Shown here: positions 271 through 61,333 of the stretch, piece by piece | How positions within the stretch are numbered: position 1 is the stretch's first letter | How the letters are laid out: each line of letters begins with the position of its first letter | Sequence record: NC_106721.1 | Length of the DNA: 64,000 nucleotides | From: Escherichia phage EC148 | Direction: 5' to 3' (one strand) | Translations under genes and position numbers: made by a program | The notes under the pieces: model-generated | What the model saw: only the letters and a program-made list of their open reading frames with translations | Database searches by the model: none | Told to the model about the DNA's origin: nothing

Positions 271-468
271 TTATTGTGGAGGAATATTAATAATTCGTCC
301 GTCTACACAATAAACGGTACTAGGAATTGTACTATATATGTAGAAATTCTTTATATTACTCTCTCCGCCACAGAAATTTTTAGCAAATTCATACTCTTTA
401 TTAATGGTTGAGTCAAGTTTAAAACAACCAGTAAGTAGGAATACAGACAGCAGTAAAACTTTTTTCAT
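271..468 (-). CDS. small lipoprotein (signal peptide plus lipobox LLTGC), 65 aa
   Basis: N-terminus MKKVLLLSVFLLTGC; AGGAAA Shine-Dalgarno upstream; own promoter at 501-529. Confidence 0.55.
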   Translation of the reverse strand: MKKVLLLSVFLLTGCFKLDSTINKEYEFAKNFCGGESNIKNFYIYSTIPSTVYCVDGRIINIPPQ

Positions 469-529: not shown

Positions 530-679
530 ATGAATTTTTAATAAATTTACTTATTGTGTAGGCCACCTGGAGGCTACCAACCCCACGGCTGACAAAGAAG
601 TTTGCGAGACCTCTCTTAAGTGCCAGAATAGACCCGCCGATCTATCGGAACCTACATAATAAGTAAACTTTATAGTGTC

Positions 680-1295: not shown

Positions 1296-1372
1296 TGGCG
1301 CGACCGATGGGATTTGAACCCACATTCCCTCCCGTGACAGGGGAGTACCATTACCAAGCCAGCCCCGGTCGC
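1296..1372 (-). tRNA. tRNA-Asp (anticodon GUC)
   Basis: Acceptor GCGACCG/CGGTCGC perfect, T-loop TTCAAAT, anticodon stem CTCCC/GGGAG with loop CTGTCAC, CCA encoded. Confidence 0.65.
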
Positions 1373-4138: not shown

Positions 4139-4216
4139 TGGTGGCTCCCCGAGGATTCGAACCTACGTACCTTCCGGTTATGAGCCGGGTGCTCATACCA
4201 TATGAGCTTGAGAACC
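4139..4216 (-). tRNA. tRNA, anticodon CAU (Met/Ile2-type)
   Basis: Acceptor with two G-U pairs, D-stem GCTC/GAGC, anticodon stem CCGG/CCGG with loop CTCATAA, weak 3-bp T-stem around TTCGAAT, CCA encoded. Confidence 0.5.
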
Positions 4217-21749: not shown

Positions 21750-23624
21750 ATGAATCGCAATGAAGAACTAAAGTATAAAGAAATGCAGGCGTTAATTAGA
21801 AACTGCAAAGAGATTATCGAAGGGTCAGCAGATGAAGAGCTGCTGTTTAATAATGCCAATAAACCCTCAGAACGTTTCCCTACACAGAGGGATATGCTTG
21901 CAGGTGAATTGAGTAAGTATCTGATTCTAGAAGAAATGCCAATTCAGATTCGAAATGCTCATATGATTGGGGATATTCATTTCCATGATGCTGATTATGC
22001 TGCATTAGGCATGACTAATTGTTGTCTGGTAGCTCTGGAAGATATGTTGAAGAATGGTATGAAGGTTGGTAATGCTGAAATTAGCACTCCAAACTCTATC
22101 ACTACTGCGGCAGCTATTACAGCTCAGATTATCACACAGGTTAGCTCCCATCAGTATGGTGGTACTTCCGTGGATCGCCTTGATGAAGTATTAGCTCCTT
22201 ATGTTCGTAAATCCTATGACAAAAATCATGCGTTTGCAAAACGTTGGACTAAAGATGAGGCCAAAGCATCAGTAATGGCTACGGAGATGACTGAAAAAGA
22301 AGTTTATGATGCCTGTCAGGGTCTAGAATATGAAATCAATACCATGTTCAACTCTAATGGTCAGAGTCCATTTATTACCTTTGGTTTTGGTCTAGGAACT
22401 TCTTGGGAAGCACGTCTAGTACAGAAAGCAATACTGAAAGTACGCATGGATGGCTTAGGTATCAATAAACGTACAGCTATCTTCCCGAAACTGGTATTTG
22501 TACTTCGTGATGGCGTTAACATGAAACCAGGAGATGTTAATTATGACATCAAGAAGTTAGCTATGAAATGTACTGCTGAACGTATGTATCCAGATTATAT
22601 CAGCTATGATAAGGTTGTGGAAGTTACTGGTGACTATAAAGTTTCTATGGGCTGCCGTTCATTCCTAGCTGCTACAGAAGATGGTGAAACTGCCGGTCGT
22701 AATAACTTAGGTGTTGTTTCTGTAAACTTGCCTAGAATTGCTATCGAAGCTGAAGGAAATATTGATCTATTCTTTGATTTGCTTGAGCTACGTGTGGATA
22801 CAGCATTAAAAGCGTTGGAGTGGAGAGTTGATCGCTTAAAATACATTCAAGCTAAAGCTGCACCCATCCTCTATATGTCAGGAGCCTTTGGACTGCGCTT
22901 GGAGCCTGATGAATACGTATTCGATCATTTCTATAACCGTGCTTCTGTATCTCTAGGATATATTGGTTGTCATGAAATGCTACAGTTCATGTTTGGCAAA
23001 GATGTAGACACAATGTCCGAGACCAGCATCAAGTTTGTTCAGCGTGTATTGCAGTACATGCGAGATAGAGTCGATCAGAAGAAGGAAGAAACTAAGTTAG
23101 GTTATAGCCTGTATGCTACACCGTCAGAGTCCCTGTGTGATAGGTTTTGCCGTTTAGATCGTGAATATTTCCCGGAGCATGAAGATATTCTGTCCAAAGG
23201 ATACTACACTAACTCTCACCACCTTGATGTGGAACGTAAAGTTGCTCCCAATGTGAAATTTGATTATGAATCTAACTTTACTCCGATTGCTTCTGGTGGG
23301 TGTATTTCCTATGTAGAACTACCGGATATGAAACGATTCCCAGATGCACTAGAATGGGTTATTAATTATGCTGCTAGTAAAGTTCATTACTTCGGTATTA
23401 ATACTCCAGTGGATTCTTGTGGTAAATGTGGATTCTTAGGTGAAACAATAGCATCCGAAGATGGATTTAAGTGCCCTATCTGTGGTAATCATGACCCCGA
23501 AACTCTTGAAGTAACTCGTCGAGTTTGTGGGTATCTTGGAAATCCAGGTGCTCGTCCATTTAACCCAGGCAAACAGCATGAGGTTATGGGCAGGGTGAAA
23601 CATCAGGATATTCGAGCTAAGTAA
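21750..23624 (+). CDS. nrdD: anaerobic ribonucleoside-triphosphate reductase (class III)
   Basis: C-terminal glycyl-radical motif RVCGYLG and CxxC...CxxC zinc ribbon; promoter TTGACA-17-TATAAT at 21692-21720. Confidence 0.85.
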   Translation: MNRNEELKYKEMQALIRNCKEIIEGSADEELLFNNANKPSERFPTQRDMLAGELSKYLILEEMPIQIRNAHMIGDIHFHDADYAALGMTNCCLVALEDMLKNGMKVGNAEISTPNSITTAAAITAQIITQVSSHQYGGTSVDRLDEVLAPYVRKSYDKNHAFAKRWTKDEAKASVMATEMTEKEVYDACQGLEYEINTMFNSNGQSPFITFGFGLGTSWEARLVQKAILKVRMDGLGINKRTAIFPKLVFVLRDGVNMKPGDVNYDIKKLAMKCTAERMYPDYISYDKVVEVTGDYKVSMGCRSFLAATEDGETAGRNNLGVVSVNLPRIAIEAEGNIDLFFDLLELRVDTALKALEWRVDRLKYIQAKAAPILYMSGAFGLRLEPDEYVFDHFYNRASVSLGYIGCHEMLQFMFGKDVDTMSETSIKFVQRVLQYMRDRVDQKKEETKLGYSLYATPSESLCDRFCRLDREYFPEHEDILSKGYYTNSHHLDVERKVAPNVKFDYESNFTPIASGGCISYVELPDMKRFPDALEWVINYAASKVHYFGINTPVDSCGKCGFLGETIASEDGFKCPICGNHDPETLEVTRRVCGYLGNPGARPFNPGKQHEVMGRVKHQDIRAK

Positions 23625-23723: not shown

Positions 23724-24104
23724 ATGGAATTAAAGCCCTATATAGTTGAATCTACATGTGGTAGTTTCCATCTGGGTGTAGATGATATTGCTGAGGCTGT
23801 CTTTGCTGCCACAGGTGATTACTCGCATATAGAGGGTGTTGGATACCCTACCATTATTGGCGATTGGGTGGGAACAAATCTAGATGTATCGCCTTATAAC
23901 CCATATTGCTTGTTTGATGAAGACAGAGATGAAGTAAAATGTAATCTTGAATTTGTGTATAATAGAGTGTTAAAAGTATACCAACGTAGCCCCAATGGGT
24001 ACGAAGATATTACTTGGAGTATTAAACAGTATCTTAAAGATGTATACTCTAGTTTTTCTGACGAAGACCTAGAAACAGTTGCAGTGGAGTTTAATAATGA
24101 CTAA
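23724..24104 (+). CDS. hypothetical protein, 126 aa
   Basis: RBS GAGAGGAG; lacks the CxxxCxxC radical-SAM motif expected for an NrdG activase. Confidence 0.5.
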   Translation: MELKPYIVESTCGSFHLGVDDIAEAVFAATGDYSHIEGVGYPTIIGDWVGTNLDVSPYNPYCLFDEDRDEVKCNLEFVYNRVLKVYQRSPNGYEDITWSIKQYLKDVYSSFSDEDLETVAVEFNND

Positions 24105-24303
24105 GAATGTGAAACACCTTAAATATCGCTTAATTTACAACGGACGTATGGAAACAGAAGATCTGGCCCAATTAGCTATTAACTCTAATGAGGTTACAGT
24201 GCGTGCACTGGCAATTGAAAAGTTGCGTGCCTCTTATGAAAATCGTGTTATGGAACTAGAGGAGAAACTTTATGGCATTCTCGAAGCCGATACTACCAGA
24301 TAA
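24097..24303 (+). CDS. hypothetical protein
   Basis: ORF, start set at MTKNV. Confidence 0.4.
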   Translation: MTKNVKHLKYRLIYNGRMETEDLAQLAINSNEVTVRALAIEKLRASYENRVMELEEKLYGILEADTTR

Positions 24304-24493
24304 GGGTTTAAACTCCGCTTTGGAAAATGCATTAATGCAGCAGTGGGAAACTGGCTATAAGGATGGTGTTGAATCCTGCGCTACTATGCTAGAAGTTATT
24401 GCTAATACCTTAATGGAGAAAGGCAATAAAGAATTAGCTGAGCTATTAGACAGTATTGGGCAAAACTTCAGAGAACAGGTGAAAAATGCGTAG
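24272..24493 (+). CDS. hypothetical protein
   Basis: ORF. Confidence 0.4.
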   Translation: MAFSKPILPDKGLNSALENALMQQWETGYKDGVESCATMLEVIANTLMEKGNKELAELLDSIGQNFREQVKNA

Positions 24494-25322
24494 ATTAATT
24501 ATTATTAGTGGTGCGGGTTTGAGTGTTGAAAGTGGTGTACGAGCCTTCCGTACTGATACTGCTAGTGGTAAAGCATTGTGGGATGACTATGATCTAGAAG
24601 AAGTATGTAATATTCATGCCTTTCGTGGTAATTTTTATCATAAAACCCATATGTTTTACAACAAGCGTCGTGAAGAGCTAAAAACTGTTGAACCCAATCT
24701 TGCGCATTTGCGTATTGGTGAATGGTATAAACAATATCCAGGTCAAGTAGTAAACTTGACTACCAACGTTGATGACCTTATTGAGCGTGCTGGCGTTCCA
24801 CATAGTGACATTCTGCATATTCACGGATATTTAAAAGAGGTTGTTGTAGCTGATAGCTACAATAGTAGCAATAAACGGATTATTGATGTAGGATACAATT
24901 CTATTGATCCAGATGATTATAAATGGGTTAAACCTAATGTAATCTTCTTTGGAGAGCATGCTCCTGCATACGCAGAAATGTATAATGTTTTTGACGGTAT
25001 TACCAGTCAAGATATGATCATTGTGGTTGGTTGCTCTAACCAAGTAATTAACTTCTACTGGGAATTATTTCCTGTTCTTAATAGGACTGCTGCGAAATTT
25101 ATGGTAGTTAACTACTATGATAGTGCCCTCGCGGCGGAACCGGGCTATCAAGGTATGACTCGTAGTGAGATGTACCAGCTGGAAGAACGTGGTGTCCCTT
25201 ACTGGAGTAAAGGTGCGGTAGATGCTTTTAGTGATCCTGATTTTATTGCTCGTGTAGAAGCTCATTTAGAGGGTAGACCTTATGTGTCGAGAAGCAAGGG
25301 AAACAGATATGTCCATAGTTAA
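24486..25322 (+). CDS. Sir2-family (sirtuin-like) NAD-binding protein without zinc ribbon
   Basis: GAGLSVESGVRAFR, NVDDLIERAG...HIHG and VIFFGE motifs; no Cys in the usual Zn-binding insert. Confidence 0.7.
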   Translation: MRRLIIISGAGLSVESGVRAFRTDTASGKALWDDYDLEEVCNIHAFRGNFYHKTHMFYNKRREELKTVEPNLAHLRIGEWYKQYPGQVVNLTTNVDDLIERAGVPHSDILHIHGYLKEVVVADSYNSSNKRIIDVGYNSIDPDDYKWVKPNVIFFGEHAPAYAEMYNVFDGITSQDMIIVVGCSNQVINFYWELFPVLNRTAAKFMVVNYYDSALAAEPGYQGMTRSEMYQLEERGVPYWSKGAVDAFSDPDFIARVEAHLEGRPYVSRSKGNRYVHS

Positions 25323-31477: not shown

Positions 31478-31506
31478 TTGCTTAATCCTATAATTCTTGA
31501 TATAAT
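31478..31506 (+). promoter_or_regulatory. sigma70-type promoter (plus)
   Basis: -35 TTGCTT / 17 nt / -10 TATAAT. Confidence 0.6.
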
Positions 31507-31563
31507 ATTCTCATAGTTTGAAAGAACTATTCTGTTTAATTCTTAATTAAGGAAATATAAAAT

Positions 31564-31974
31564 ATGACTACTCCAACTCAGTGGACTGATGAACTGTTCG
31601 AAAAAATGTCTTCCGAATACGTTGCTCGTATGGAGCAATTCCCAGAGGATGAACGTCCGGGTGTTAGCATGGAAATTGTTAGCGAAATTGCTCAGGAAAA
31701 TGGTGTAACTCCGAACGGTTTTCGTATGAAGTTGACCAAAGCAGGTGTATATATCAAGAAAGCTGCTGGCTCTGCTTCTAAATCTAGTGCATCTACTGGA
31801 GAAAAAGCTTCTGGTGGTTCTCGCACTTCCAAAGCCCAAGCTCATGCCGATCTTCGTTCAGCATTCTCTGATGCTGGCCTAGCACCAGATTTTCTGGATG
31901 ATGCAATTATCGACAAACTGACCGGTAAAGCGGCTGCTCATCTGGCAGAAGCAATCCGAGCTATCACTAAGTAA
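31564..31974 (+). CDS. hypothetical protein, translation-optimised codons
   Basis: Promoter 31478-31506; strong host-like codon bias. Confidence 0.5.
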   Translation: MTTPTQWTDELFEKMSSEYVARMEQFPEDERPGVSMEIVSEIAQENGVTPNGFRMKLTKAGVYIKKAAGSASKSSASTGEKASGGSRTSKAQAHADLRSAFSDAGLAPDFLDDAIIDKLTGKAAAHLAEAIRAITK

Positions 31975-32357: not shown

Positions 32358-32666
32358 ATGAGCGAACAGGTAAATCAAAACTATGAAGGACACGTTGATG
32401 ACCAGTCCATCATACTTTGGGAGAAGGAGGGGGAACAAGTAAGATTAACAGTATCTGAATTTCGTGGGAATCTATACATGGGTATTCGTTACTGGCTTCT
32501 TGATATTAATGATGAATGGTTTCCAACGAAATCTGGCTTCTCTTTTCCTTACACCCTAGAAACAACATCACAGCTTTTCTATGCGTTTACACAGATTCTT
32601 AGCGAATCTGAGGTTTTACATGAAGTACAGAAACGAGCTGAAGAACTCAAAGCCAAGAATGCCTAG
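32358..32666 (+). CDS. hypothetical protein
   Basis: ORF followed by hairpin GCCAAGAA...TTCTTGGC. Confidence 0.45.
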   Translation: MSEQVNQNYEGHVDDQSIILWEKEGEQVRLTVSEFRGNLYMGIRYWLLDINDEWFPTKSGFSFPYTLETTSQLFYAFTQILSESEVLHEVQKRAEELKAKNA

Positions 32667-32693
32667 TTCTTGGCTTTTTCTTTATAAATGTAT

Positions 32694-32722
32694 TTGCTTT
32701 CAACTCAGTTTTGTTATATAAT
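32694..32722 (+). promoter_or_regulatory. sigma70-type promoter (plus)
   Basis: -35 TTGCTT / 17 nt / -10 TATAAT. Confidence 0.6.
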
Positions 32723-32752
32723 ATTTATATAAATTAATGAGAGGGTTGCAAA

Positions 32753-33025
32753 GTGAAAAAGATAAGTATAAGTACACTTAAACCTTTCCCGTACATCGGA
32801 CAGCCTCTTATACTTATGTGGGAGGGGAAGATTAATGGAGAAAAGTATACTAAAACTAGAAGTGGGTATAAGCTGATTTCACTTCATTACGAAAAAGAAG
32901 TATTAGTAGCTGAAATATACTCTCCGTTGTCAGATAGGCTAGTAAAAACTACATATTTGCATCTTTGCAAAAATTATACATGGCACGGATCCACTAGACA
33001 ACCCACATACTATGAGGCAGAATAA
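32753..33025 (+). CDS. hypothetical protein
   Basis: ORF downstream of promoter 32694-32722. Confidence 0.45.
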   Translation: MKKISISTLKPFPYIGQPLILMWEGKINGEKYTKTRSGYKLISLHYEKEVLVAEIYSPLSDRLVKTTYLHLCKNYTWHGSTRQPTYYEAE

Positions 33026-33997
33026 ATGACCAATGTAAAAGACTTTATTAAACGTTGCCAAGAAGCATATTATCAAGGTATGTCTTTAATCTCTGATGAA
33101 GAGTATGATTGCCTGGTAAAACGCTTTCCGTTAGAAGAAGAGATCGGACCTAAGGGCGATATTCCACATCTGTATCGTATGTATTCTTTACAGAAAGTTT
33201 ATTATAATCGTGGAGATAAACCTCCGTTTAACCCGTTAGGTCAAGTAGAAACTGATAAGTTAGATGGTTGTGCAATTTCTCTGTTATATATTAATGGCGA
33301 ATTTGTTCAAGCACTAACTCGTGGTAATGGTATTCTAGGGAATGATGTCACAAGCAACGTAAGATTGCTGAATATCCCTAAAAAGATTTCCCAAAAAGTA
33401 CCTACTCAAATCACTGGTGAAGTTCTAATTACAAAAGAAGTAGAAAATAAACGTAACTTTGCCTCTGGTGCTATTAACCTCAAAGATAGTGATGATTTTG
33501 TACAACGTATCGGAGAAGGTGGTTTAATCTTCGTTGCATATGGTATCCAGTGTTCTGCTGAATCTGTAGGTATTACAGAAGCATATTTAAAAGATATGCT
33601 TTGGCTGGAGAATGAGAACTTCTTAACAGTTGTTAATGTGCGTTCCTTCTTTAAATGGATTCCGACGGATGGTAAAGTTGTTCGTATTAATGACAACAAC
33701 AAATTCTTCCGTGAAGGCTGGACTAATAAATTCCCTCGTGGAGCATTCGCTATTAAAGAGGATGAAGAAGGCGAGGTTACAACTCTTACTAAAGTTGAAT
33801 GGCAGGTAGGGGCTTCTGGTAAAGTAACTCCAGTTGGTTATTTCGAACCGGTAATTATTGATGATGCTACAATTGTTAAAGCGACTCTTAATAACGTTGA
33901 TTATATTAACTCTCTTGATCTAGAGATCGGTTGCCAGATTCGAGTGATTCGTGCTGGTGGTGTAATCCCGTGCATAGTAGAGCGAGTATACGAGTAA
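33026..33997 (+). CDS. NAD-dependent DNA ligase, adenylation-domain subunit
   Basis: KxDG active-site motif (TDKLDGCAIS) and LigA-type nucleotidyltransferase/OB region. Confidence 0.8.
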   Translation: MTNVKDFIKRCQEAYYQGMSLISDEEYDCLVKRFPLEEEIGPKGDIPHLYRMYSLQKVYYNRGDKPPFNPLGQVETDKLDGCAISLLYINGEFVQALTRGNGILGNDVTSNVRLLNIPKKISQKVPTQITGEVLITKEVENKRNFASGAINLKDSDDFVQRIGEGGLIFVAYGIQCSAESVGITEAYLKDMLWLENENFLTVVNVRSFFKWIPTDGKVVRINDNNKFFREGWTNKFPRGAFAIKEDEEGEVTTLTKVEWQVGASGKVTPVGYFEPVIIDDATIVKATLNNVDYINSLDLEIGCQIRVIRAGGVIPCIVERVYE

Positions 33998-57652: not shown

Positions 57653-60600
57653 TTAAGAATTTCCTAATGTTTTCAGACTAGCACCGTTCTCATTCAGAGC
57701 TAATTCTACTGCGTCTCTTAGAGCACTACTATTACTAGAAGCAAACTCTCTAAAACTTGCAGCATCCATAGCACTAATATTCAAGATGATAGGTCTTCCT
57801 GAAGTTGAGTTAGATGAAGTTTTTAGCTCATCATTAGGTGTAGCTTTCATAGGAATCATAGGGGTAACTACTTCTGTACCATGCTCACCCATTTGATAGC
57901 TAACCCCAGGGTACATATTACCACCCTCAGCACGAGGAACGAAAGAGTTAGCGCTACCTATACCTTGATCGCCACGAATATAAGACAGTTCACCTGCATT
58001 AGCAGACATGGACACATCTATATTCTTCTGACGTTCTCCTAAGGTTAGGTAACTAGTTGTATCCGCTCCAGAATCTGCAATACTTGACATACCAGATGCA
58101 GAAGATGCTTGAGCAAGAGCTAAGGCACCTGCCAAACCTGCCGCCACCATCAAAGGAATAGAGAACGGGTACGGTACAGCTGTCGCCGCTTGCATTACAG
58201 CTACTGCAGTTTGGATGATGATCTGCTTCTTAGCTGCGTCTTGTTGAATCTTCAACTTTTCAGCTTCTAGTTTCTTCAACTTAGCTTTAGATGCTTCTGA
58301 TTTACCATCACGTTTCTGCTCTGCTGCAATAGCCTGATCAATTGCACTAACCTGTTGACTAGTACTATATTGAATCATAGAGGCCACAGTCTGCATACCT
58401 GCTGCGATCGTGGAAGTAGTGTCTAAAGACCCCATAGAGAACTGAATCATAGCATTGGTTAAATTACCCATGCTTTGAGCTACAGCAGTTGCTTCGGAAT
58501 TTAACTCAGATAGTTTAGAAATTGCCTGATCATAAGAAGCCATTCTATTTCCCATATCAGCAAAATCTTTATCTTCTCCAGATAGTCCAGTTGTAGGAGT
58601 GTACACAGCACCTAAAGAAGATCCAACAGAAGCTTGCATCTCCGCATTTCTCTGTGCCCTTAAACCTGCTAGTTGTGCCCTAGTTTCAGCTATCTTTTTA
58701 TTATATTCCGCTTGTGCCGCAGCATTACCTAATGTTTTCTGCTTTAAGTCTTCATATAATTTTAGCTGTTCCTGTAAGCGCTCCGCATTTCCCATTAATG
58801 GTTTAGCAGTAAATTGTCTTTGCTGTTCTTCCTCTCTACCAGCAGCCATTGAAGCAATCTGATCTTGGCGGAATTTCCAGATTTCACGTTCAATTTGGGC
58901 TTGAGCACGTCTAGACTGTTCCGCCTCTTTCTGTTTATCAGCTTGTTTTGTATACCATTCGTACTTCTCTTTTTCAATGGTCAATTCAAGATTTAACTGT
59001 GCTAAACGATACTGAGTATCTGTCATAGTACGGTTATTTAAGAGAGCTATCTCACGGTCTACACCCAGAATTTTATCTGTATAATCCTTAACTTTCTTCT
59101 GAGCTTCCATACCCTGATTGGTAAGCTTAAGTTTCTCCAGCTGAATTTTTTCAATCTCTTTCTCAACAGCTTTATTTCCCTGATTAGTTTGAAGTACACG
59201 GCGTAAAGCAGCCTCTTGCTCTTCTAACTGTTGGAGTTCTAAACGCCTACCGGCTTCCTGTGCTTTTTCTTTATCTTTAGTTTGGTTGTATACGTCAGCT
59301 ATCTTCTGTTGAACTGCTAACTGGTTCTTAGTCTCATTACCGGTTAGTTTAACGTACTCAGATAAGGCCTGAGACGCAGTTTTCATTTCAGACAGAGTAT
59401 TATAGCCTAGGTTAAGGTTTTTAACATACTCGTCTGCACTTTTACCAGTACCTTGAGATAGTGATTCTATATTTTTTATAGCATCTGCTAAAGTAGCACT
59501 AGTCTTAGCAGCAGTATCTGTATTCTGAGCAACGTTCTGTATATCATTAGCTAAGTCACTAGCAGTTTTCTTAGTCTGATTATATGCCTTTTGTTGTTCA
59601 GTTAGTCCTTTTAATACAGTAGAGTTAAAATCGTATACAGCATCAGGATCAGTAGTATCTCTCTGTAGATTAATCTGTTTCTGAAACTCTGGATTAGCTT
59701 TTGCAGCAGCAGCTCCAGCAGCCTGATAAGCTGATTTCCAAGCATTGAGGTTCTCTGTAGAATCCTCTACTTCCTTACCGAGTCTAGTTACTTGTAGACC
59801 CATAGCTGCGGTTTCTTCTACAAACTTTTTATTAGCTTCGGAAGCACCCGCGGCTGCAATACCAACAGGAATACCTTCACCAACTTGACGTATAGCTAGT
59901 TTTGTATAGAAATCTGCTTGTTCCATTCGTTTATCGAACTCAGATTTTAGCTTATTACGCTTATCAAGAGATTCCTTATACATATCTAGAGCTTTATTAT
60001 AGCCTTCTTCAGAAGCAGCTAAACTTAAAGCAACAGCACCAACGTTGGTAGGGTCTATCTGTCTATTAGTTTTTTCTTGAGCTCTAGCTGCCTCAGCAGA
60101 TATAGAAGCCTGAGATGTATAAAATACTGTGTTGATAGCATCAATTACTGGCCCTAAATACTTAGCAGCAGCTTGTTGTATTTTTCTTAGTGCAGCATCT
60201 GCATTAGCAGCAAATTGCTCCCATGGAGTTGCACGTAGTACTTCATCTAGATAGCCAAACCGTTTAGTAGATTCAGCAATTACTGCATTAGCATATGCTT
60301 GTTGCTTCTGGAAAGTGGTAAGACTATTAACATTATATGTTATACCTGTGTTTGCAGCATTTAACTGTTTAACATAATCAGCGTATGCGTCATTAAGACG
60401 GATAGTGACACCAAGTTCATCCAGAAGTTCGATTTCTTGTTTAGATACGCCCTTAATTACACGGTTAAGTGCATCAGTCATATCAACGCCAAGAACAGCA
60501 GCCGCACGACGAGCTACTAAACCAAATTTATTAAGTTGTTCAGCATCAAATCCATAAGCAGATGCTGAAGATGCCTGTCTCATTGCTTCCTCAAAAGAAA

Positions 60601-61333
60601 TAGCATATCCAGCAGCTTCTTGTAGTGATCTAGCAAGGGTCTGAACAGGAGTACCTGTCTGAGTACCTACTATAACACCAAATTTTTCTAGACGATTTAG
60701 CTGATCACCTAGTTTAAGTTGTTCAAATGCTGATTGCAAAACGAAGATGTTGGAAGCAAGAGCTGCGTACATAATAGGTAGACTACCACCGATCTTAGCC
60801 ATTGCCGCAAAATCACGAGTTGCACCACGTGCTGAACCAGAGGTATTACCAATAGCTCTAGAAGCTCTACCAGCGGCACCAGCAGTGTCGTTAAAACCTC
60901 TAGCTGTACCACCTAATGCTCTATTAGTATCGTATAATCTATCCTGGACTTTTTCTGTTGCAGCTGCAACATCATTACCCATTGTTTTAACAGATCTAGA
61001 AACTCCATCAAATCCAATTTCTAGTTTATCTGTTACTTCAATAAGTTGGATAGCCAGGTAATCTAGCTTATCACCAATACCATCAATGGATTTAGTAATA
61101 CCAGCCATACCCCTACTAGCTTGCATTTTAGTAAGACTTTTCGCTGCTCTGTCTGCTGCCCTCTCAATGGAATAAAGAGTTCTGGGCATTTTACCTAACT
61201 GCTCATTTGTCAGTTCGGAAGCAGCAGCAGCATTTTCCAACGCATCAGATACGTTTTCAATAGACTTTGCAGTACGAGTTGCCCCCTTCTGTTTAACGTC
61301 TATTAGTAATTCTCGTATTAGCTTATCAGTCAT
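57653..61333 (-). CDS. tail tape measure protein (T5 pb2-like)
   Basis: 1226 aa, long Ala/Gln/Glu-rich coiled coil with hydrophobic C-terminal segment. Confidence 0.85.
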   Translation of the reverse strand: MTDKLIRELLIDVKQKGATRTAKSIENVSDALENAAAASELTNEQLGKMPRTLYSIERAADRAAKSLTKMQASRGMAGITKSIDGIGDKLDYLAIQLIEVTDKLEIGFDGVSRSVKTMGNDVAAATEKVQDRLYDTNRALGGTARGFNDTAGAAGRASRAIGNTSGSARGATRDFAAMAKIGGSLPIMYAALASNIFVLQSAFEQLKLGDQLNRLEKFGVIVGTQTGTPVQTLARSLQEAAGYAISFEEAMRQASSASAYGFDAEQLNKFGLVARRAAAVLGVDMTDALNRVIKGVSKQEIELLDELGVTIRLNDAYADYVKQLNAANTGITYNVNSLTTFQKQQAYANAVIAESTKRFGYLDEVLRATPWEQFAANADAALRKIQQAAAKYLGPVIDAINTVFYTSQASISAEAARAQEKTNRQIDPTNVGAVALSLAASEEGYNKALDMYKESLDKRNKLKSEFDKRMEQADFYTKLAIRQVGEGIPVGIAAAGASEANKKFVEETAAMGLQVTRLGKEVEDSTENLNAWKSAYQAAGAAAAKANPEFQKQINLQRDTTDPDAVYDFNSTVLKGLTEQQKAYNQTKKTASDLANDIQNVAQNTDTAAKTSATLADAIKNIESLSQGTGKSADEYVKNLNLGYNTLSEMKTASQALSEYVKLTGNETKNQLAVQQKIADVYNQTKDKEKAQEAGRRLELQQLEEQEAALRRVLQTNQGNKAVEKEIEKIQLEKLKLTNQGMEAQKKVKDYTDKILGVDREIALLNNRTMTDTQYRLAQLNLELTIEKEKYEWYTKQADKQKEAEQSRRAQAQIEREIWKFRQDQIASMAAGREEEQQRQFTAKPLMGNAERLQEQLKLYEDLKQKTLGNAAAQAEYNKKIAETRAQLAGLRAQRNAEMQASVGSSLGAVYTPTTGLSGEDKDFADMGNRMASYDQAISKLSELNSEATAVAQSMGNLTNAMIQFSMGSLDTTSTIAAGMQTVASMIQYSTSQQVSAIDQAIAAEQKRDGKSEASKAKLKKLEAEKLKIQQDAAKKQIIIQTAVAVMQAATAVPYPFSIPLMVAAGLAGALALAQASSASGMSSIADSGADTTSYLTLGERQKNIDVSMSANAGELSYIRGDQGIGSANSFVPRAEGGNMYPGVSYQMGEHGTEVVTPMIPMKATPNDELKTSSNSTSGRPIILNISAMDAASFREFASSNSSALRDAVELALNENGASLKTLGNS

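Follow-up and report, generated by a model that had tools for sequence, protein, structure and literature searches.

The open reading frame (ORF) at positions 271 to 468 of the window (the whole 64,000-nucleotide stretch of Escherichia phage EC148 DNA, NC_106721.1, that was analyzed) encodes a 65-amino-acid (aa) lipoprotein precursor of the phrog_6073 family. The gene is already catalogued but appears to be misnamed. It encodes a small phage envelope lipoprotein unrelated in sequence and in predicted fold to Llp, Cor, and Rz1, and the database description of its family, "Rz-like spanin," a name copied into many records (RefSeq, Pharokka annotation), is very probably wrong. We consider it highly likely that the product is a real early periplasmic lipoprotein that is neither a spanin nor a receptor blocker. 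The best explanation as a whole, to which we give slightly less than an even chance, is that it acts as an early membrane-tethered periplasmic binder protecting the infected cell. A specific role in exclusion or protection, suggested by analogy, is put forward more tentatively still.

The precursor (MKKVLLLSVFLLTGCFKLDSTINKEYEFAKNFCGGESNIKNFYIYSTIPSTVYCVDGRIINIPPQ) starts with a basic n-region (KK), followed by a hydrophobic core and a lipobox ending at Cys15. A preliminary description made from the DNA letters had pointed out the signal peptide and the lipobox of this 65-aa ORF, and both were confirmed: a strict lipoprotein signal was found in 1 of the 1114 candidate ORFs of the window, namely, this one. 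The Shine-Dalgarno (SD) site named in the same description was also found, as AAGGA located 7 nt before the ATG, and the phage 5 record has a ribosome-binding site annotated at the corresponding place. The residue at position +2 is Phe, followed by Lys, a combination of the outer-membrane type with no inner-membrane retention residue. In enterobacteria, the sorting of lipoproteins follows the +2 rule, and Phe at this position is an outer-membrane signal. When T5-like copies of the ORF were compared, synonymous codon changes outnumbered nonsynonymous ones (17 versus 9, 28 versus 12, and 26 versus 17), and the substitutions were mostly found at the third position. This pattern indicates purifying selection. 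As judged from its sequence, the ORF is a genuine protein-coding gene.

The ORF matched phrog_6073 over its full length (E=1.2e-28), with residues 1 to 63 aligned on profile positions 3 to 67 of 67. A profile search of 1.84 billion cluster representatives returned 38 clusters at E<=0.001, the members of which were nearly all 61 to 90 aa long. With the degenerate pattern WA..FCG...C.DGR, 4 true loci were found in IMG/VR; none of the 34 matches in GTDB genomes was confirmed as a family member, one Lewinellaceae ORF being marginal (E=1.4e-4). According to these searches, phrog_6073 is a small phage-restricted family. Cys33 and Cys54 were invariant in the family alignments, and two motifs, [FW]A-x2-FCG and C-x-DGR-x2-[DN]-I-P, recurred. 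The EC148 ORF carries the full family signature, that is, an N-terminal membrane anchor, the two invariant cysteines, both motifs, and a length within 61 to 90 aa. Scans of the protein against Pfam, NCBIfam, and PADLOC gave weak signal-peptide or noise matches only, and the family profile, run against PDB sequences, brought up nothing of note: complement factor H came up at E=0.004, but no single stretch of it passed by itself. No study of the phrog_6073 family was found in literature searches.

In the AlphaFold2 model, a helix ending at Cys33 is followed by strands at residues 39 to 43, 50 to 54, and 59 to 62; the predicted local distance difference test (pLDDT) score was 87 to 98 over residues 21 to 60, with a mean of 80. 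A Foldseek search against BFVD returned family members alone, and the model had no fold match in PDB, the Ivy, MliC/PliC, and Pli families included. The anchor differed among family members. The +2 residue was Phe, Tyr, or another residue of the outer-membrane type in most of them, and Asp in 12 sequences, a group that includes the Salmonella Seunavirus copies (CDIGQ), which are 70 to 73% identical to the outer-membrane-type copy of PVP-SE1. Four further members lacked the lipobox Cys and had a plain hydrophobic N-terminal segment as an anchor. The distinctive feature of the family thus appears to be its indifference to which membrane holds the protein.

The source of the window is a T5-like phage. 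Its first 1400 bases were 100% identical to Escherichia phage T5_ev212 (LR597659, positions 32493 to 33892) and 97 to 99.9% identical to many Tequintavirus genomes, such as SPC35, FFH1, slur09, and MM-1. The ORF lies within the tRNA-gene region, in the early part of the genome. A consensus-like promoter had been proposed at positions 501 to 529, and this proposal was borne out. With a score of 10/12, the promoter was the best among 8 matches in the 3 kb scanned; 7.3 matches were expected in shuffles, so the promoter scan on its own is weak evidence. The promoter, the 5' untranslated region (UTR), and the SD site aligned nearly base for base with the annotated "promoter P13a" of T5 (RefSeq NC_005859) and of phage 5 (AJ604531), and the P13a core was also kept in the distant Erwinia phage KEY. 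By this homology, the promoter would be of the early type, and the protein encoded behind it carries an export and lipidation signal. The earlier suggestion that the ORF has its own promoter held in part: the promoter is real and strong, but it is not private to the ORF. Only 9 nt separate the stop codon from tRNA-Pro, and a sequence scan detected no terminator-like site in this interval, so the downstream tRNA genes are probably under P13a control as well. Transcription from P13a thus probably yields a lipoprotein-mRNA/tRNA co-transcript, in which the lipoprotein gene is the first cistron.

The homology with T5 and phage 5 runs through P13a and the SD site and breaks at the start codon. Between P13a and tRNA-Pro, T5 has T5.066, annotated as a 52-aa protein with two transmembrane (TM) segments, and phage 5 has hegB, encoding the HNH endonuclease F-TflIII. 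These genes share the promoter, the 5' UTR, the SD site, and the downstream tRNA-Pro with the lipoprotein gene, and T5.066 is likewise a very small envelope-directed product. However, the sequences are unrelated, T5.066 being an integral membrane peptide and hegB a homing endonuclease gene. As the alignments read, the locus is a cargo slot between a P13a/SD cassette and tRNA-Pro, with unrelated cargo in other T5 relatives. In all the Markadamsvirinae copies examined, those of Tequintavirus, Epseptimavirus Ace, KKP_3711, and Erwinia phage KEY, the lipoprotein gene was immediately upstream of tRNA-Pro. The P13a promoter/leader segment (window positions ~461 to 540) occurred at 792 places in 432 T5-like records, several times per genome in most, and at some of these places a different gene followed it, in certain cases one for a homing endonuclease. 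Such recurrence points to a repeated promoter cassette, through which cargo may be exchanged.

We also examined the distribution of the gene. The protein was found by tblastn in 82 phage records, and 515 records matched the surrounding 1.4 kb. A query made of the gene plus its promoter matched 432 records, 68 of which covered at least 80% of it; in the partial matches, among those listed, the promoter segment alone aligned. Counted in this way, the gene is accessory and dispensable, being present in ~70 to 80 of the roughly 500 T5-like records. The copy of Salmonella phage KKP_3831 was frameshifted after about codon 31, with the rest lying in a different frame, and a 105-nt coding sequence (CDS) is all that its record annotates at this place; the copy is either a pseudogene or the product of a sequencing error. 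Erwinia phage KEY and Seunavirus myoviruses (PVP-SE1 gp211, SSE121, and Cronobacter phages) carry relatives with 42 to 55% identity, which keep the lipobox and the two further cysteines; in Seunavirus, the homologue lies within a block of small ORFs. For more distant members, the setting was a block of small ORFs of the early type in a large virulent phage, where T4 Y00F, DenV-like, and GIY-YIG genes were neighbors. In one lambdoid prophage, the gene followed cI/cro and the replication genes and had their orientation, a location that matches the nin region. In the contexts examined, the gene never adjoined a holin, endolysin, i-spanin, or receptor-binding gene.

By the sequence rules, the protein would be exported by the Sec pathway, lipidated at Cys15, and cleaved by signal peptidase II, and Phe at +2 would commit it to Lol transport and thereby to the inner leaflet of the outer membrane. 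Its compact helix-plus-three-strand domain would then face the periplasm, probably stapled by a Cys33-Cys54 disulfide. The tether, whether in the outer membrane, in the inner membrane via Asp at +2, or as a TM segment, would have no other task than keeping a small binding domain within the periplasm. Since the same domain is tethered to either membrane, its target would be periplasmic or envelope spanning rather than a particular outer-membrane receptor, and the comparative data point to a target common to enterobacteria. Protection of a cell that is already infected is the function we favor: the domain may bind and block a step in the periplasm on which incoming phages, or other attackers of the envelope, depend. 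The leading candidate would be a receptor-independent superinfection exclusion, following the logic of T4 Spackle or Imm and not that of Llp or Cor. The gene is common to virulent siphoviruses and myoviruses and is also found in a lambdoid genome, where it lies in the early (nin) region; predicted early expression and presence in such different phages fit the protection of the infected cell. The exclusion or envelope-targeting factor suggested in the preliminary description fits the predicted early expression and periplasmic location.

T4 Spackle is a periplasmic protein made early, and it inhibits the tail lysozyme of an incoming phage (PMC7677548). Like Spackle and Imm, the phrog_6073 protein would be made early by a virulent phage and would act in the periplasm or the envelope without involving the receptor, and Spackle is also small and dispensable in single infection (PMC7677548). 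However, Spackle is soluble in the periplasm (PMC7677548), whereas the phrog_6073 ORF product is predicted to be membrane tethered, and the resemblance is one of logic only. No similarity in fold or sequence was found between the ORF and Spackle.

Several points weigh against this explanation. The exclusion role is argued only from timing, location, and analogy, and the early timing is itself deduced by homology with a promoter annotated in T5. A gene that is patchily distributed and easily lost might also fill a role specific to some niche, with no bearing on other phages. The predicted model covers only ~45 ordered residues and was built from a 14-sequence alignment, and the putative Cys33-Cys54 disulfide is suggested by the invariance of the cysteines. 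The +2 rule was established for Enterobacterales, and for most of the distant members its application is tentative; in the Salmonella Seunavirus copies, the Asp-Ile signal may give only partial retention. A broader reading, which we regard as speculative and unlikely, is that phrog_6073 is a new class of receptor-independent protective module traded among T5-like, rV5-like, T4-like, and lambdoid phages. Such a module would be a disulfide-stapled domain of ~45 residues working from an outer-membrane, inner-membrane, or TM-helix tether, and it might neutralize a conserved step of the attack on the infected cell that takes place in the periplasm, such as that performed by tail tips of incoming phages that are muralytic or form channels, by bacteriocins, or by type VI secretion system effectors.

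The main rival to a protective binder is a protein tethered in the periplasm that inhibits or modulates an enzyme of the cell wall or envelope, to the benefit of the phage's own cycle rather than in competition with other phages. It could inhibit a muramidase or peptidase and so prevent early lysis or lysis from without, or it could modulate a host pathway of envelope stress or proteolysis. We consider this unlikely, although the arguments from location, timing, and anchor independence apply to it equally, and a compact, putatively disulfide-bonded domain would suit it. Periplasmic lysozyme inhibitors such as MliC are lipoproteins, which also counts in its favor. However, the absence of any match in PDB extends to the known inhibitor folds listed above, and the gene is dispensable. 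Moreover, the carriers appear to use different endolysins, of the peptidase type in T5-like phages (PMC4342426) and predicted to be lysozyme-like in a viral contig; a shared phage-encoded target is therefore unlikely.

A second rival is an Llp/Cor-type mask that binds the phage's own receptor (BtuB, FhuA, or FepA) from the periplasmic side and thereby stops readsorption and superinfection. The ORF has some traits of such a protein: lipoproteins are rare in phage genomes (PMC6139136), and a small outer-membrane-type lipoprotein made from an early promoter recalls T5 Llp (Decker 1994, as cited in PMC4342426). The likeness to Llp/Cor (phrog_1119) includes a signal peptidase II signal, an outer-membrane sorting residue in the EC148 copy, an early sigma-70 promoter, and the status of a dispensable accessory gene that is plausibly protective. 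However, the same genome has an 88-aa lipoprotein annotated as "receptor-blocking protein," which matched phrog_1119 (Cor superinfection exclusion protein) at E=1.8e-26. Its gene is divergent from that of the 585-aa receptor-binding protein (RBP), at LR597659 positions 105730 to 107839, outside the window. The position next to the RBP gene is therefore taken by another lipoprotein, and the ORF lies in the tRNA region, ~75 kb away, in keeping with the earlier remark that it is not near the tail genes. The preliminary description had also seen no obvious resemblance to T5 Llp and had proposed a comparison with Llp- and Cor-type lipoproteins. In that comparison, similarity stopped at the signal peptide: the ORF matched phrog_1119 at E=0.087 over residues 1 to 20 only, and hhalign aligned just 17 to 18 signal-peptide residues with T5 Llp and with the genome's own blocker. 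The BFVD search likewise gave no fold similarity to such proteins. T5_ev212 carries the 585-aa RBP and the phrog_1119 blocker, not T5 pb5 and Llp; this locus is not T5-like despite the name of the phage.

A receptor-specific mask is expected to covary with the RBP, as the adjacent Llp-type genes in T5-like phages are thought to do. Copies of the ORF with at least 98% identity accompanied RBPs of three or more classes: in slur09, the RBP was 64% identical to pb5; in NBSal005, SP33, Sen-E22, HMD-P5, and phC11, it was ~30% identical over the full length; and SCF and ECOP18 had the DT57C type. DT57C itself lacks the ORF despite sharing its RBP class with SCF and ECOP18, and EPS7 and T5 lack it as well. 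The RBPs of T5_ev219 (a sister record of T5_ev212) and of the close relatives ECOP18 and SCF aligned with T5 pb5 over the C-terminal half only, like that of DT57C. Homologues of the ORF were found in myoviruses, T4-like contigs, and lambdoid prophages, and, in contrast to Llp and Cor, phrog_6073 includes members predicted to be anchored in the inner membrane. Receptor masking, one of the roles first suggested for this ORF, is thus disfavored, and we regard it as improbable.

The family name would make the ORF product an o-spanin subunit (Rz1-like), which fuses the membranes at lysis together with an inner-membrane spanin. The phrog_6073 match bears this description, and the protein is, like o-spanins (lambda Rz1 and the T5-family phrog_812), a small outer-membrane-type lipoprotein with periplasmic cysteines. 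A curated spanin census (Kongari et al. 2018), however, assigned to the T5 family an overlapped pair made of a 147-aa i-spanin and a 117-aa o-spanin (PMC6139136); in SPC35 this pair is located at positions 22433 to 23161, away from the ORF homologue at 31494 to 31688. In agreement with this family, we found an overlapped pair, unannotated, in the genome of the ORF as well (LR597659, positions 23964 to 24697, outside the window), consisting of a 149-aa i-spanin with an N-terminal transmembrane domain (TMD) and a 117-aa o-spanin with the lipobox ITGC, which matched phrog_739 and phrog_812. This place is an annotation gap of the record, flanked by the dNMP kinase gene and the next "Phage protein." In PVP-SE1, the pair is at positions 60594 to 61283, far from gp211 at 130942 to 131154. 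The ORF is outside the lysis cluster and has no partner i-spanin: its neighbors are P13a and a stable-RNA gene upstream and tRNA-Pro downstream, and no adjacent type II membrane protein was found in the contexts examined (PVP-SE1, KEY, the lambdoid prophage, and T4-like contigs). PVP-SE1 gp212 was considered as an i-spanin partner of gp211 and rejected, as it is Cys rich and has no TMD. This 124-aa protein gene overlaps gp211 by 4 nt; on the other side, gp210 is a 215-aa two-TMD protein with an Ala/Lys/Glu-rich C-terminal tail.

The comparison of the proteins led in the same direction. The alignment of the ORF with the T5-type o-spanin by hhalign had a probability of 4% and covered the lipobox only. 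Rz1 has a proline-rich region (PMC6139136), whereas the ORF product has a compact predicted alpha/beta domain with 3 prolines in 51 residues. The anchor of phrog_6073 is not restricted to the outer membrane, and members with Asp at +2 or a TM anchor cannot sit there; such members are incompatible with an o-spanin role, which we judge very improbable for this ORF. The label most probably arose from the resemblance of a small phage lipoprotein to Rz1. Least credible of all is that the ORF is a nonfunctional, fortuitous or decaying frame in the leader of the P13a-tRNA transcript: its short length, its patchy distribution, the frameshifted KKP_3831 copy, and a slot that accepts unrelated inserts would agree with this, but the protein is conserved at 23 to 55% identity across phage families with its invariant cysteines and export signal kept, synonymous changes are in excess, the SD site is strong and correctly spaced, and the fold prediction is confident.

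Features of the locus, by position in the window
Feature	Position	Strand	Remarks
tRNA-Met	102-179	minus	just downstream of the ORF
tRNA-Pro(UGG)	186-261	minus	ARAGORN and Rfam; downstream boundary of the cargo slot
CDS, 65-aa lipoprotein precursor (phrog_6073 family)	271-468	minus	ATG 468-466, TAA 273-271; from the ORF list
Mature 51-aa lipoprotein (predicted)	274-426	minus	lipidation residue Cys15, Phe at +2; Cys33 and Cys54 invariant
Lipobox L-T-G-C	424-435	minus	conserved in the family
Signal peptide, residues 1-14 (MKKVLLLSVFLLTG)	427-468	minus	read from the sequence; predicted cleavage before Cys (MKKVLLLSVFLLTG/C)
Shine-Dalgarno AAGGA	476-480	minus	7 nt 5' of ATG; shared with the T5 and phage 5 P13a leader
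Sigma-70 promoter, equivalent of T5 P13a	501-529	minus	TTGCTA (529-524), 17-nt spacer, TATAAT (506-501)
A/T-rich stretch	531-547		upstream of P13a
Counterpart of T5 stable RNA RNAIV	555-657	minus	conserved upstream flank, outside the gene; mapped from the T5 annotation
Counterpart of T5 stable RNA RNA2	676-800	minus	mapped from the T5 annotation
tRNA-Asp	1296-1372		upstream of the ORF

Other elements around the gene were also recorded. Positions 545 to 925 of the window, which take in the RNAIV and RNA2 counterparts, were 98% identical to T5, and neither counterpart matched an Rfam family. Both RNAs are tRNA-like; RNA2 was not called a tRNA by ARAGORN, though its T-arm is tRNA-like. Further along, Rfam called a tRNA at positions 4142 to 4216 on the minus strand (40.3 bits) that was absent from the ARAGORN output, and the MM-1 record has a tRNA-Met annotated at the matching position. 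A 33-aa GTG-initiated ORF at positions 465 to 566 on the minus strand is an annotated CDS in PV577657 and overlaps promoter P13a. We considered it as a conserved upstream partner of the lipoprotein gene and rejected it because of this overlap and because it has no counterpart in Erwinia phage KEY; it is probably spurious. In KEY, another mini-ORF, of 35 aa with a CxxC...CxxC arrangement, lies between the promoter and the lipoprotein gene.

The main concrete outcome of this analysis is an annotation correction together with a tractable experimental candidate. The name "Rz-like spanin" for phrog_6073 has spread widely, through RefSeq and through Pharokka annotation of T5-like and Seunavirus genomes, and several of these genomes belong to candidates for biocontrol or therapy. 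The label gives these phages a spurious third spanin, and the real pair can go unannotated, as in LR597659. The P13a slot, filled by a lipoprotein gene, a two-TMD peptide gene, or a homing endonuclease gene, is an example of cassette exchange in the T5 tRNA region. Finally, a family that is predicted to be well folded, is of the early type, and is common to very different phages offers a tractable candidate for a new envelope-level phage function.

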